This document shows, one piece after another, positions 12,633 through 63,925 of a stretch of DNA of 64,000 bases. Numbering within the stretch: position 1 is the stretch's first letter; every line of letters starts with the position of its first letter. The notes under the pieces are model-generated. The model searched no databases, had not been told where the DNA came from, and saw nothing but the letters and a program-made list of their open reading frames with translations. This DNA comes from Eledone cirrhosa (lineage: Eukaryota): NCBI GenBank assembly GCA_964016885.1, contig OZ024742.1, forward strand, positions 202,616,001-202,680,000. Reading direction: 5' to 3'. The translations under genes and the position numbers were made by a program.

Positions 12633-13703
12633 GGGGTGGTATAACACTGGAAGGTAATATCCGTAGGGCTAGAGCACTCAGTCCATGTGACGAGTTAGGT
12701 AGATGTGGTTACACAACAGTTAGTTCACTATGCCGAGAACAATTGTTTCTCCTTAGCTCGTAAGGGAAATAGTTATACGGAACAGGAAGGTCAACCGTAT
12801 GAACGCGCATGCGCAGAAACTGTCACTTCACCCAGGCAATTCAAAATTGCGTGCGAGAGGTGTAAGGGAGATAACTGCGAAAGTCCGAAAGTTTCTAGTT
12901 GATAAGAAAATTAGAATGTTGTAATTCAATGCGGAGCTTTGTAGTTATGTAAGAGGTGTTTCCAGACGTGTGGACAACGTGTGAAGAATTCAAATCTTGA
13001 GTTTAGGCAATCGCTATTGCGTAATCTCTTTAGAATATTTATTCGTTCAGCAATACATAGTCCGCACGACGGATTGCCCCTTGCGTATGGCTTGGACTTA
13101 ATGATGGCTTTCCATTGAAATTGAATGGAGTAGTATTTACTTGAGTCCTTGAGGGACCATACGTGGCTCGCGAGTTTCGTGGGTGATCGTTTGCCCGGGT
13201 ACCTAAAGGTCGACTGATAGTTCAGGAAGCGTTCCTTGAATCGGCCCTCCGCCAACCCACATAGGATTTGACCTCCTGTGGTTAATTTCATAAACTACAG
13301 CAGGTGTGTTGCATTGCTGTTGAAGGGGACAAGCTTCAGGCTTTCGGGAAGAGCACCCTGGTGGGGTGTTGCTCTTCTGGCTGTTGGTGATGTGGGCCTT
13401 CATGTTCTTAGTGCAGAAGTTGTCCACACGTCTGGAAACACCTCTTACATAACTACAAAGCTCCGGATTGAATTACAACATCCAAATTTTCTTATCAACT
13501 AGAAACTTTCGGACTTTCGCAGTTATCTCCCTTACGCCTCTCGCACGCAATTTTGAATTGCCTGGATGAAGTGACCGTATCTGCGCATGCGCGTTCATAC
13601 GGTTGTCCTTCTTGTCCAGTATAACCATGTCCATTACGAGCTGAGGATCCGCTAAGGTGAAACAATTGTTCTCGGTATGGTGAACTAACTGTTGTGTAAC
13701 CAC
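12633..13703 (-). mobile_element. Truncated PLE: GIY-YIG remnant with pLTR and tail (left) and inverted pLTR (right)
   Basis: 12705-12927 is the reverse complement of ~13468-13703. Remnant translations CPLQQQCNTPAVVYEI, GLAEGRFKERFLNY, CGLCIAE..LNSRFE..CPH. Confidence 0.88.
13637..13674 (+). ncRNA. Minimal hammerhead ribozyme
   Basis: cgag-CTGAGGA-tccgctaaggt-GAAA-caattg-TT-ctcg. The core is deleted in the opposite arm. Confidence 0.8.
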
Positions 13704-13826
13704 TTATATATATATATATATATATATGTGTGTGTGTATATATATATATATATATGTTATGTATATATATATATATATATATATATATATATATATATAT
13801 ATATATATATATATATATATATATAT

Positions 13827-15694
13827 ATTATAATGAAATGACAGGAGGCTGGATTTGTGTAAATCCTTGAAAGGTTTATTATACTATGATCATTTCAATG
13901 ACCGGGTTCCGTATGAATCCGGTGATATCATCAGGTATTCGAAATATAATAAGTGAATGTAATAGATAAAATCCATGGGGCTGAAAATCAAGGACCCGAG
14001 GGCGACCGCCATCCAGCATCTTCTACCTTTGCCGGTCGCCCTCGAGTGAATACAATTAACGTTTCTTCATAAAAGACTCTCTTTAACTAAACCCCGCAAC
14101 CCAAAACCTTTAAAAAGTTTTTTTTAATGTTTAATTTTCAATTTTCTGTTTGTTCAATTCTCAATCTTCTTACTCTTTAATTTTATAATGTTATTCTGAA
14201 TTTTTTCAACTTCATCCTATAAATTTAAACAATATTTTAATGTTCCAACATTCTGTCGGACTGTTGGGTTGGTTTTCCTGGCGGCGGGACCGGCCTGCCT
14301 ACCTTGAGTGCTTGGAAAAATAAATTTCCCCTTCTTTCGGTAAATGAAACTACTCGGAGTGGCTTGATTCGCCCCAGGGGCCCGGCAGCACAGCCGGTTT
14401 TTTAACCGCCACATAGTACCTTTAAATTACAGATCAAATCAGAACTATTAGATATATCACGCCTCCCTCTACTTAAGCAAACCCCCCTCCCGGGTAAAGG
14501 AATAATACTGGTTTTGTACAAGAATGGCCTAACGATGCGGGCTGACTTCCTGCTGGCGCAACTGAAGCCTGTTATACATTCCTAGAGTGCTCGGAAAAAT
14601 CGATTTCCATATATTTCGCTAGGCGATATCACTCGAAGTAATGGGCTGGGCTGCCCAAGCTTGTAGTCGCCGCATGCTGTTTGACGGCTAAACAAAGACA
14701 TAATCTTTACTCTATAATAAAATTTAAGTGTCTTCATAAAAGGCTCTTTCTTTGCCTAAACTTCGCAACCTTAAAAATGTTAAACTGTTTAACTTTAAAT
14801 TTTCTAATTCCTTTAATATTAAATATTAATTTTTAACTTCATCCTATAAGTCTAAACAAAAACGTAACGTTCCAATCTTCTGCTCGCACATTATAACACA
14901 CTGACCCCACTATATTTATCTCTGCTAAGATACGGGTCCCTGTAAAAAAATTTTTTCGCGCCACTCCTGGCCTGACTGTAGTCTGACATTAATATGGACC
15001 TTTCTTCCTCTTCCTTTCTATCTTTCTTCTTGTAGCCATCAACCCTGACTTTTCTACTTCTTCCTTTTCTTCCTTCTCTTCTCCCTTCTTTCTGTCTTCC
15101 TCCCGCTGACTTATCTTCCTTCCCCTTTTTGTCTGGCCTGACTCTAATACCGACCTTTCCTCCTCTTTCTTTCTGTCTTTCTTCTTATAGCTGACATTAA
15201 CCCCCTTCTTCTCTCTTCTTTCTTTCTTTCTTTCTTTTTTCTTGTGGCATGTTATTAACGCTAACTTATGTTCCCATCCCTTTCTGTTTTCCTTTATTTG
15301 ACCGGTAGTAGCACACTGTAAGCTTTAACCACGTCACTCGAGGGCGACCGGAAAAGGTAGAAGATGTTGGATGGCGGTCGCCCTCGGGTCCTTGATTTTC
15401 AGCCCCATGGATTTTATCTATTACATTTACTTATTATATTTCAAATACCTGATGATATCACCGGATTCATACGGAACCGGTCATTGAAATAATCATAGTA
15501 TAATAAACCTTTCAAGGATTTACACAAATCCAGCCTCCTGTCATTTCATTATAATATTTAACTCCGTAATAGCACCACCAACTACAAAAACAAGACGGTT
15601 GAACTGCTTTACGTTGAGTACTCTCTATATTATTACATTGCGATTGACCATACGGAATTGACCAGCTCTATCCAGTGGTGAACCTCAAACCTGA
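13827..15694 (+). mobile_element. Non-coding PLE derivative: inverted arms 13827-14049 / 15334-15555, tail to ~15694, in (TA)n
   Basis: ~220-bp near-perfect inverted repeat with a hammerhead in both arms. Internal degenerate duplications (14060-14260 ~ 14730-14885). Confidence 0.8.
15445..15501 (+). ncRNA. Hammerhead ribozyme (inverted copy 13881-13938, minus strand)
   Basis: atac-CTGATGA-..accgg..ccggt..-GAAA-t(g/a)atca-TA-gtat. Confidence 0.72.
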
Positions 15695-16613
15695 ATATAT
15701 ATATATATATATATAAATGTAAGTATGTATGTATACGTACATACATATATGTATACAGACGTACATTAGTACGCATATATATATATATATATATATATAT
15801 ATATACATATATATACACATATGCATACAGGTACACATACATATATGCACGCATCAGTTTAGCGGACGTTTATTATAGCGCCCGCTTTGTTCGTTTGTTT
15901 GTCAACAAATCGAACAGCCTGAATTTATGCCATACGGTGTTAAGGCAACCACGTCACCTTTTTGTTCAACACTGACACAGGAACGATGTACTAGTTTCAA
16001 GCTTGTTAGCTATCATCAGCACCTTTTACCCATCTGCCAGATAGTAGAACGTTCGAAAGTATATACTTTCCTTATGAAAATTAACGGCTGAGCAGCCTAA
16101 TTTGCATATTGAGTGAGTTAAATCGGTCAGGCATACCGGAAACGATAAGTTGAAAAAAATGAAAACGAAATTTCATTTCTCACTCTTAGTATGGCACTTA
16201 CTTAAATGTAAGTATGTATGTTTACGTACATACATATATGTATACAGACGTACAGTAGCACGCATATATATATATATATATATATATACATATATATACA
16301 CATATGCATACAGGTACACATACATATATGCACGCATCAGTTTAGCGGACGTTTATTATAGCGCCCGGTTTGTTCGTTTGTTTGTCAACAAATCGAACAG
16401 CCTGAATTTATGCCATACGGTGTTAAGGCAACCACGTCACCTTTTTGTTCAACACTGACACAGGAACGATGTACTAGTTTCAAGCTTGTTAGCTATCATC
16501 AGCACCGTTTACCCATCTGCCAGATAGTTGAACGTTCGAACGCCATACTAAGAGTGAGAAATGAAATTTCGTTTTCATTTTTTTCAACTTATATATATAT
16601 ATATATATATATA

Positions 16614-62831: not shown

Positions 62832-63338
62832 GAATAAGTAAAAGCGAAGTAGTTTCAGACCTTTAATAATAATGCTGTGATATATATTTCAATGACGACA
62901 CTGGCCACACTGTTCTGTGTGCGAGTGTCGTGACATCATCAGACAGCTTGTTACATAATAAGGTTGTTTCCGAGGCAATCCAAATTGAATCGACATGGGA
63001 ACGGATAAAGTTCGTGCTTTTGGGTTTTTCATCCGTTCCCTTGTGAACGGATGAAAAACCCAAAAGCACGAACTTCATCCGTTCCCATGTCGATTCAATT
63101 TGGATTGCCTCGGAAACAACCTTATTATGTAACAAGCTGTCTGATGATGTCACGACACTCGCACACAGAACAGTGTGGCCAGTGTCGTCATTGAAATATA
63201 TATCACAGCATTATTATTAAAGGACTTGAACATCTGAAAGTACTTCGCTTTTACTTATTCGATATTTACTCCGTCACTCCTATGTGGAAAAAGTACGTTG
63301 AGTGGTTGAATTGAATTGCATCAATGTTTACCCTAATA
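62832..63338 (+). mobile_element. Fold-back element (arms 62832-63038 / 63045-63260) with tail
   Basis: ~205-bp near-perfect inverted repeat with a 6-nt loop, (TA)n flanks. Confidence 0.9.
63136..63209 (+). ncRNA. Hammerhead ribozyme (inverted copy 62874-62947, minus strand)
   Basis: gctgt-CTGATGA-..acgacact..agtgtcgt..-GAAA-tatata-TC-acagc. Confidence 0.8.
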
Positions 63339-63516
63339 ATATATATATATATATATATATATATATAAATATATATATATATATATATATATAGATATAG
63401 AGAGAGATATAGATATATATATAGATATATAGATAGATATGCCTATGTATATATATGTAAATACACACACACACACACACATATATATATATATATACAT
63501 ATGTATATATAAATTA

Positions 63517-63925
63517 TATTAATAAATGGAGACTACATTTATAAAACCATATTTATTCTATTATATATATTTCAATGGTACCAAAGATTCGGTACCCTCT
63601 CATCAGATAAAATACAAAATTTGTTTTATAAATAGTGACATACCCAGGAATCGGACCTTAGCGGTTCAAGTTCTGTTTGGATATCCAAACAGAACTTGAA
63701 CCGTCACTGTTTATAAAACAAATTTTGTATTTCTTCTGATGAAAACGTACCAAAGTGTTGGTACCCTTCAAATATATATAATAGAATAAATATGGTTTTA
63801 TAAATATAGTCTCCATTTATTAATATCATTTATATTATACTCCAGAAACTTGTCGAGTGCTTCGAACCTGTTTTAAATATATTTGTTGAATTACCAACAA
63901 ATTAAATATCTCTTTGCTTATATGT
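63517..63925 (+). mobile_element. Fold-back element related to 33925-34395, with a hammerhead at 63554-63614 (minus strand)
   Basis: Arms ~63517-63639 / 63703-63826, central perfect palindrome 63662-63703. tattttat-CTGATGA-..ggtacc..ggtacc..-GAAA-tatata-TA-atagaata. Confidence 0.85.

Follow-up and report, generated by a model that had tools for sequence, protein, structure and literature searches.

Two-armed Penelope-like insertions of Eledone cirrhosa almost always pair a short with a long endpoint

A 64,000-nt stretch of the Eledone cirrhosa genome (assembly GCA_964016885.1, contig OZ024742.1, forward-strand positions 202,616,001 to 202,680,000; hereafter the window) contains insertions assigned to Penelope-like elements (PLEs), in which two oppositely oriented copies of the element's 3' end are joined as arms. 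Analysis of the window and of the 3.0 Gb genome revealed that the outer ends of these arms lie at fixed sites, and that an insertion almost always combines one short arm end (S) with one long, or "tailed", arm end (L). Either arm may be tailed, and exactly one is. This S+L pairing is a well-supported new rule on known elements; it is not stated in the literature searched, with supplements (e.g., figure S2 of PMC11167929) and most subscription journals lying outside that search. The insertions probably arise by two-end (twin-type) target priming on RNA from one source copy, at S and L sites, followed by joining of the two cDNAs.

Pairing of Two Fixed Endpoints

Arms in the window were located by self-comparison and end-by-end alignment. 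Oppositely oriented pairs of element 3' ends are present at all 17 sites named in an initial annotation made from the sequence alone (Table 1). That annotation described one arm as stopping at a fixed site and the other as continuing 40-140 nt further; a one-sided extension of ~40-135 nt was delimited at 16 of the 17 sites, the insertion at 53618 being too diverged for its tail end to be placed. Its statement that either arm can carry the tail is also borne out: at 16615-16883 the longer arm has it, at 25331-33605 the inverted one. Single-armed copies occur in the window as well (39937 and 36886).

Endpoints were expected to be non-random within families, and they are: exact patterns of family A recover 4589 S ends and 3235 L ends genome-wide, while reversed control patterns recover none. 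Family B has about 17,000 motif matches. The first 71 Mb of contig C1 contain 100 S and 70 L ends of family A, and all 52 outward-facing exact-match pairs up to 12 kb apart in this region are S+L, with no S+S and no L+L pair (p ~9e-16 at 50:50). S is on the left in 35 of these pairs and L in 17; they represent 51 insertions, one L end being paired twice. A mismatch-tolerant sequence tally, with identical insert sequences merged and family D pairs spanning two loci not counted, gave heterotypic to homotypic ratios of 68:2 for family A, 35:2 for family D and 18:0 for family C (121 of 125 in total); one family A pair, at L105 (L with a number denotes a sampled genomic locus), involves a nested end, and the family C ratio is weakened by sampling from S ends only, where L+L could not appear. 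For family B, manual reading yielded 13 S+L insertions from 15 of 30 hits (13/13 resolved), the other 15 being unresolved within 1.5 kb. In a separate set of 38 near-full-length family A copies, drawn from seven contigs, 17 have both ends visible, all S+L: the main arm is L and the inverted arm S in 11, including one whose tail is a variant, and the main arm is S and the inverted arm L in 6.

The notion of two defined endpoints holds for the families generally but fails for family C, found at 37061, which has three: S, plus long ends at ~44 and ~58 nt beyond it. All seven start sites with known continuation match TA repeats for 2-7 nt, the chance per site being 0.21-0.25. The long end of family D (window 48207) occurs in two adjacent registers 2 nt apart, at ~2:1. 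Two arm pairs appeared to cross families. The partner at L244 is another TA-flanked repeat joined directly; at L194 the partner is without any other match.

Single Arms and the Probable Order of Priming

Manual classification of the 100 S ends gave 62 in S+L insertions, 1 in S+S, 30 single arms joined straight to TA and 7 broken or unresolved; among the 70 L ends, 60 are in S+L, 1 in L+L, 2 are single and 7 unresolved. S-only insertions thus account for 30 of 93 resolved S ends, against 2 of 63 L ends for L-only insertions (Fisher p 4e-6). The frequency of S-only insertions and the rarity of L-only ones make it probable that S is used before L; L, which lies 3' of S, would then still be available to a second primer. 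Partner arms of only 7-18 nt exist (L089, L205, L145, L147, and L290); a fraction of the single arms could therefore reflect two-end events without visible extension.

Near-perfect palindromic insertions in which one arm ends shortly past the centre were observed at L202, L206, L219, L246, and L243; the broken arms are possibly the result of palindrome-induced deletion. Local inverted duplications centred on TA tracts in or beside family A copies (L110 and L129) differ from S+L insertions.

Arm Lengths, Stop Hotspots and Junctions

Arm lengths were compared in 66 insertions of family A and 35 of family D, two further family A rows (one complex, one nested) having been dropped. On the 5' side the S arm outreaches the tailed arm by >10 nt in 13/66 and 17/35 insertions, respectively, and in 5/35 family D insertions the L arm consists of the tail only, which is absent from the S arm. 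In family A, arms of equal length were found in 22/66 insertions (4 of them away from the stop hotspot described below) and a longer L arm in 31/66.

These lengths bear on the possibility that an L-primed cDNA stops, folds and is copied back until a TA-like S site joins the other target end. Fold-back accounts for the S+L pairing, the variants shared by the arms, the equal-length and L-longer insertions, and the inverted arms resembling the inner pseudo-long terminal repeat (pLTR) in L346 and one window copy. It cannot yield the S arms that reach further or the tail-only L arms; the 30 S-only insertions show that S itself primes, and the zero-loop GATC palindrome at the centre of some insertions would fit annealing of two ends better than a hairpin. 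Since each arm often holds sequence that the other lacks, fold-back is not the general route: as the sole route it is refuted, it is possible for insertions in which the S arm is not longer, and as the overall explanation it is unlikely.

The 5' truncation points, described in the initial annotation as variable, are ragged in part, but many arms stop at one hotspot per family. In family A (28504-28521) it stops 23/66 S and 18/66 L arms, and in family D (near 47950-47961) 17/35 S and 11/35 L arms; single arms stop there too. When both arms stop at the hotspot, they join via a GATC or CATATG palindrome, giving symmetric units. The family A hotspot lies in a context that we take to be TATA-like and initiator-like. 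Penelope transcription starts inside the pLTR (passages of PMC8557442 and PMC2377424), and the two points together suggest that the hotspot is the RNA 5' end. Ribozyme cleavage was rejected as the cause of the hotspot in family D, where the hotspot is ~70 nt upstream of the hammerhead-like core and arms read through the core; in family A no core was found by motif scan.

Junctions outside the hotspots overlap by at least 2 nt in 18/50 cases in family A and 10/29 in family D, about twice the chance levels of 16% and 15%; as support for joining these figures are tempered by mismatch-tolerant extension, with which the overlaps were called and may run slightly high. Inserts of 1-15 nt occur at 14/66 junctions in family A and 12/35 in family D.

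Existing two-armed copies might alternatively be transcribed through and re-inserted from a single priming event. Recurrence of a 430-nt symmetric unit (11 rows of exactly 430 nt) and the second arms without an outer end agree with such inheritance. Most junctions, however, are unique, the hotspot is also where single arms end, units of close to 430 nt are found with several different sets of variants, on which their two arms agree, and the tRNA chimera described below has no master in the assembly. Inheritance of ready-made units is therefore improbable as the source of the two arms.

A Probable Single Source for Both Arms

Within insertions the arms are discordant in 10 of 538 comparisons (1.9%) at 12 polymorphic sites in 53 insertions, compared with 16.8 +/- 1.5% (minimum 11.2%) in permutations with arms shuffled between insertions. 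Rare variants are common to both arms, and L213 carries one internal deletion in both. At L049:1000-1530 (contig C1:22189081-22189600) the two arms share a foreign sequence beyond the element and terminate at the 5' end of a tRNA-Met gene. A search of the assembly for this chimeric junction found it nowhere beyond the two arms of L049, which represents a one-off SINE-like (short interspersed element) capture; a tRNA-headed non-autonomous family was rejected, as the chimera is a single insertion. From the ending of both arms at the 5' end of the sense tRNA gene, a sense read-through RNA whose 5' end is defined is the most likely template. Priming of cDNA by both target ends from one source is strongly implied; the template may be one RNA molecule or two of the same locus, and S and L may come from the same pLTR or from different ones.

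The same insertion argues against formation of the inverted arm by self-priming on an antisense template, as proposed in passages of PMC3846280, or by a switch to antisense RNA. Palindromes (GATC and CATATG) are frequent at junctions, which speaks for this route, but both L049 arms stop at the 5' end of a sense gene, and the fixed outer and ragged inner ends are those of two cDNAs begun at the outer ends. Antisense RNAs starting at both S and L, in strict complementary pairing, would also be required, and we regard this route as very improbable, slightly more so than inheritance.

The TA Target and Raw Reads

The initial annotation placed the insertions in (TA)n. Pure TA runs of at least 10 nt are present on both sides at only 11-12 of the 17 window sites, the flanks of the others being short, degenerate or formed by another microsatellite; at 12633, 18066, 33925, and 53618 at least one flank is (GA)n, (GT)n or degenerate AT-rich sequence. 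In the sampled loci, median TA runs beside S/L ends are similar (41/33, 30/29, and 28/32) and exceed 17, the median of all TA runs in these loci, while flanking runs down to 5-7 nt occur. The S-side run is 8 nt longer than the L-side run in family A (p 0.04), with no S/L difference in families C and D.

Two-armed insertions were also interpreted as telomerase-like healing, in which the two ends of a spontaneous break in a TA tract would be capped, the reverse transcriptase (RT) adding TA repeats before copying the element. The relatedness of this RT to telomerase (passages of PMC8557442), the 7 nt of TA repeat at the family A S site, the long flanking runs and the S-side excess in family A are in its favour. 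Against it are the GIY-YIG endonuclease that the elements themselves encode, the equality of S and L runs in the other two families and the runs of 5-7 nt, and long runs are explained by long-tract preference or later slippage; this part of the annotation is not supported, and its likelihood is smaller still than that of the antisense route. The self-complementarity of the TA target, suggested as the reason for two arms, may be unnecessary: in Adineta vaga, copies that have inverted pLTRs are flanked by ordinary target duplications of 8-10 bp (passages of PMC3846280).

Three raw Illumina runs of restriction-site-associated DNA sequencing, bearing the same species label, contain TA loose ends behind 28714 and 28750 (543-713 reads each). 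Strand-switch joints in these reads cluster at 28508-28526; the 28511/28515 joint, with a 4-nt overlap, is present in all three runs with 17, 12, and 4 reads, low counts that template switching in the polymerase chain reaction (PCR) could also produce. The concern that the palindromes are read or assembly fold-back artefacts, to which the >3 kb duplication including the flanks of L249 and the ability of PCR to switch templates at palindromes lend something, is largely refuted and barely credible, since arms are asymmetric with family-specific ends and mutually diverged in older copies, and all three read sets show both ends and hotspot joints.

Identity of the Elements

Judged by their sequence features, the inserts are PLEs of the Hydra and Neptune/Nematis types, clade calls being based on motifs as described in passages of PMC8557442. 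RT is followed by a C-terminal GIY-YIG endonuclease in one open reading frame (ORF), frameshifted in the window copies; in a Pfam search of window positions 26433-27752 the GIY-YIG domain was above the cut-off (E 1e-6) and RVT_1 below it (E 3e-4). pLTRs arising from partial tandems, an inverted 5'-truncated copy and a tail, all of them PLE features, are present. Families A and C share with Neptune/Nematis PLEs a C-terminal GIY-YIG domain whose core contains two cysteines, together with a CX4CxxC linker, within the CX2-5CxxC pattern of that group, and are putatively assigned to Neptune/Nematis jointly.

Family D resembles Hydra clade PLEs in its CxCX5C linker, lack of CCHH, DKT motif in RT, and CxxC and CxH motifs in the endonuclease; along with several other window copies, it also shares with them a hammerhead-like core and TA targets. 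It differs in having RWT where RWK is expected and in a unit or tandem period of ~3.7-3.9 kb instead of the usual <3 kb. Hammerhead-like cores (CUGANGA...GAAA) are predicted in the arms of many window families, D included. No hammerhead was among 150 of the 181 Rfam matches, and the Rfam output was microRNA-like noise from microsatellites.

Insertions and Other Features of the Window

The coordinates of the insertions are collected in Table 1. At many loci PLE insertions of different families stand end to end (e.g., window 44148-49400), each newer one in the TA run beside an older one. The inner inversion junction of the insertion at 59187 (60196-60765) contains additional short segments of the RT region in inverted arrangement, 60201-60243/60723-60765 and 60240-60515. 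The tail of the family C mini-insertion at 37065-37238 corresponds to the ORF start in a related copy at 3942. A family C relative at 2810-5999 has an inverted arm and a fragment of the endonuclease; its N-terminal ORF contains a long insert rich in asparagine and threonine (4709-4993), which recalls the N-rich inserts in passages of PMC3846280.

Several further repeats were noted. A high-copy short repeat with inverted ends (10532-11103, 12165-12478, and 15714-16592), very deep in raw reads, has CUGANGA...GAAA cores at 10534, 12171, 15995, and 16478 and may be a further non-autonomous hammerhead-bearing family. A 3' fragment of a separate ORF resembling those of long interspersed elements (LINEs) is located at 36144-36794, just past the TA run at 36166. 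Positions 43293-44158, inserted in TA, contain 114-nt equal terminal inverted repeats and a transposase-like ORF; this DNA transposon remnant, presumably Tc1/mariner-like, is not part of the PLE finding.

Table 1. Two-armed PLE insertions and their landmarks in the window.
Feature	Position	Strand	Details
Hydra-type two-armed insertion	12634..13703	-	Tail left, 12634-12704; arms 12705-12978 / 13419-13703
Endonuclease fragment in 12634..13703	12926-13294	-	Left flank of insertion (TA)n(GA)20
Two-armed insertion	13829..15694	.	S end left; ~134-nt tail right, 15561-15694
Hammerhead-like cores in 13829..15694	13893-13934; 15449-15489	-; +	Predicted by motif scan
Family A mini-insertion	16615..16883	+	S arm left; L arm with 40-nt tail right
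Diverged two-armed insertion	18066..18478	.	~40-nt tail left; AT-rich degenerate flanks
Family B, S arm joined to tail-only L arm	24892..25286	.	Absent from the initial annotation
Family A (Neptune/Nematis-type) partial tandem	25331..33605	+	Inverted tailed arm 25331-26265; main arm 26265-33605 ends at S site
Frameshifted RT-GIY-YIG ORF of 25331..33605	starts 28776	+	
Family A 5' stop hotspot	28504..28521	+	Both arm kinds and single arms; GATC palindrome 28511-28514
Family A internal start sites	28707..28750	+	S = 28707, next 7 nt match TA repeats; L = 28747, next 3 nt match; tail between
Near-perfect palindromic two-armed insertion	33925..34391	.	~90-nt tail right; imperfect AT flanks
Family B insertion	34946..36165	.	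S end left, its arm internally deleted; ~95-nt tail right
Family C mini-insertion	37065..37238	.	S end left; 44-nt tail right
Two-armed insertion	44176..44605	.	~134-nt tail right
Family D (Hydra-type)	44633..48207	+	Inverted S arm 44633-45013; main arm with broken RT-endonuclease ORF; 86-nt tail 48122-48207
Family D landmarks in 44633..48207	near 47950-47961; 48021-48067		Stop hotspot; hammerhead-like core
Family B insertion	48263..49279	.	S end left; 92-nt tail right
Old diverged inverted pair	53617..53907	.	Tail end undelimited; non-TA flanks
Two-armed insertion	55532..56437	.	80-nt tail right
Two-armed insertion	56460..56722	.	~76-nt tail left
Hydra-type two-armed insertion	59187..62385	+	77-nt tail on inverted left arm; S end right; TA flanks 12 and 7 nt, 7 nt at S end
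Palindromic two-armed insertion	62832..63338	.	70-nt tail right; hammerhead-like core in each arm
Palindromic two-armed insertion	63503..63927	.	~87-nt tail right

Proposed Mechanism

In the proposed two-end priming, the element endonuclease would nick both strands of a TA tract, and the 2-7 nt of TA/AT at each RNA site could help to seat the primer. One target strand would prime at S and the other at L, ~40-135 nt further 3'; each cDNA would grow up to a point of stalling or to the RNA 5' end, represented by the hotspot. The 3' ends of the cDNAs would then anneal or undergo end joining, each serving as primer for the second strand of the other. Priming of both target ends and joining of the cDNAs in the middle, as the initial annotation had proposed, is well supported by the geometry of the insertions, the strict S+L pairing, the asymmetry of arms that are not mutual copies, and the junction overlaps and inserts, and it fits passages of PMC11167929. 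That PLEs normally integrate by programmed two-end priming, with a dimeric RT-endonuclease on one RNA assigning S to one strand and L to the other, is a tentative extension in which doubt slightly outweighs belief.

Several observations weigh against two-end priming. Four insertions are homotypic (L192 and L249 S+S, L241 and L248 L+L), of which L249 sits inside a larger inverted duplication of >3 kb that includes its flanks. A second arm is missing at about 30% of S ends, and in four S-anchored and several L-anchored copies the second arm is interrupted short of its outer end. In 53/66 insertions of family A and 18/35 of family D, L049 among these, the S arm does not exceed the L arm in length. 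Comparison of the inverted arm with the pLTRs of tandem copies gave mixed results (like the inner pLTR in L346, 7:1, and a window copy, 4:1; like the outer one in L374, 5:2, L097, and L266), indicating no single geometry, and is not used as support. Paralogous empty sites sought in the sampled loci yielded only tandem repeats or chance joins; under the proposed scheme the target would have held a TA tract beforehand. Finally, later gene conversion between arms could partly yield the shared variants, but conversion after insertion leaves the tRNA chimera of L049 unexplained.

Comparison with Known Systems and Implications

Passages of PMC8557442 name the routes to tandem and inverted PLE structures as open. 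The endonuclease-positive PLEs described there and in PMC3846280 resemble the present elements in partial tandems, an adjacent inverted 5'-truncated copy, a tail at either end, TA targets and a transcription start inside the pLTR. The tail is presented as optional or often at one end and is ascribed to endonuclease resolution or self-priming; these passages contain no S+L rule, order of priming or template test, and give tails of 30-40 nt, compared with 40-135 nt here.

In vitro, the Poseidon element PAc of the green anole likewise starts reverse transcription at two internal sites, which mark the limits of the tail, and both strands are cut and extended; a dimer is predicted, and uncleaved RNA is the template (passages of PMC11167929). 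The assay stops at initiation, inverted arms and product joining not being treated in these passages. According to them, the start site did not differ between strands and initiation involved no RNA-DNA homology, which also counts against the proposed mechanism, whereas every start site here matches TA repeats for 2-7 nt.

The closest working analogues are twin and dual priming of L1 (passages of PMC2837659 and PMC2246262), in which both target 3' ends prime cDNA and inverted pieces are joined with little or no microhomology (PMC2837659). In L1 this happens occasionally and by accident, at an internal site that varies, and gives pieces that do not overlap; in the PLEs most insertions are of this form, with overlapping arms and two internal sites at fixed positions. 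The L1 arrangement, with a first primer at the RNA 3' poly(A), a variable second one upstream and non-overlapping pieces, was not observed.

The near-exceptionless pairing, found in four families of two clades, relates the known pair of start sites to the pair of DNA strands and argues against antisense-RNA self-priming as a general route. It gives sharp predictions for the existing in vitro assay, making an open mechanism testable, and offers curators a boundary rule where copies number thousands to tens of thousands. If programmed two-end priming is correct, the tail and the inverted pLTR would be one signature of a retrotransposition route distinct from the LINE and long terminal repeat routes, in which the cDNAs prime each other's second strand, and which would be common to the Hydra and Neptune/Nematis clades.

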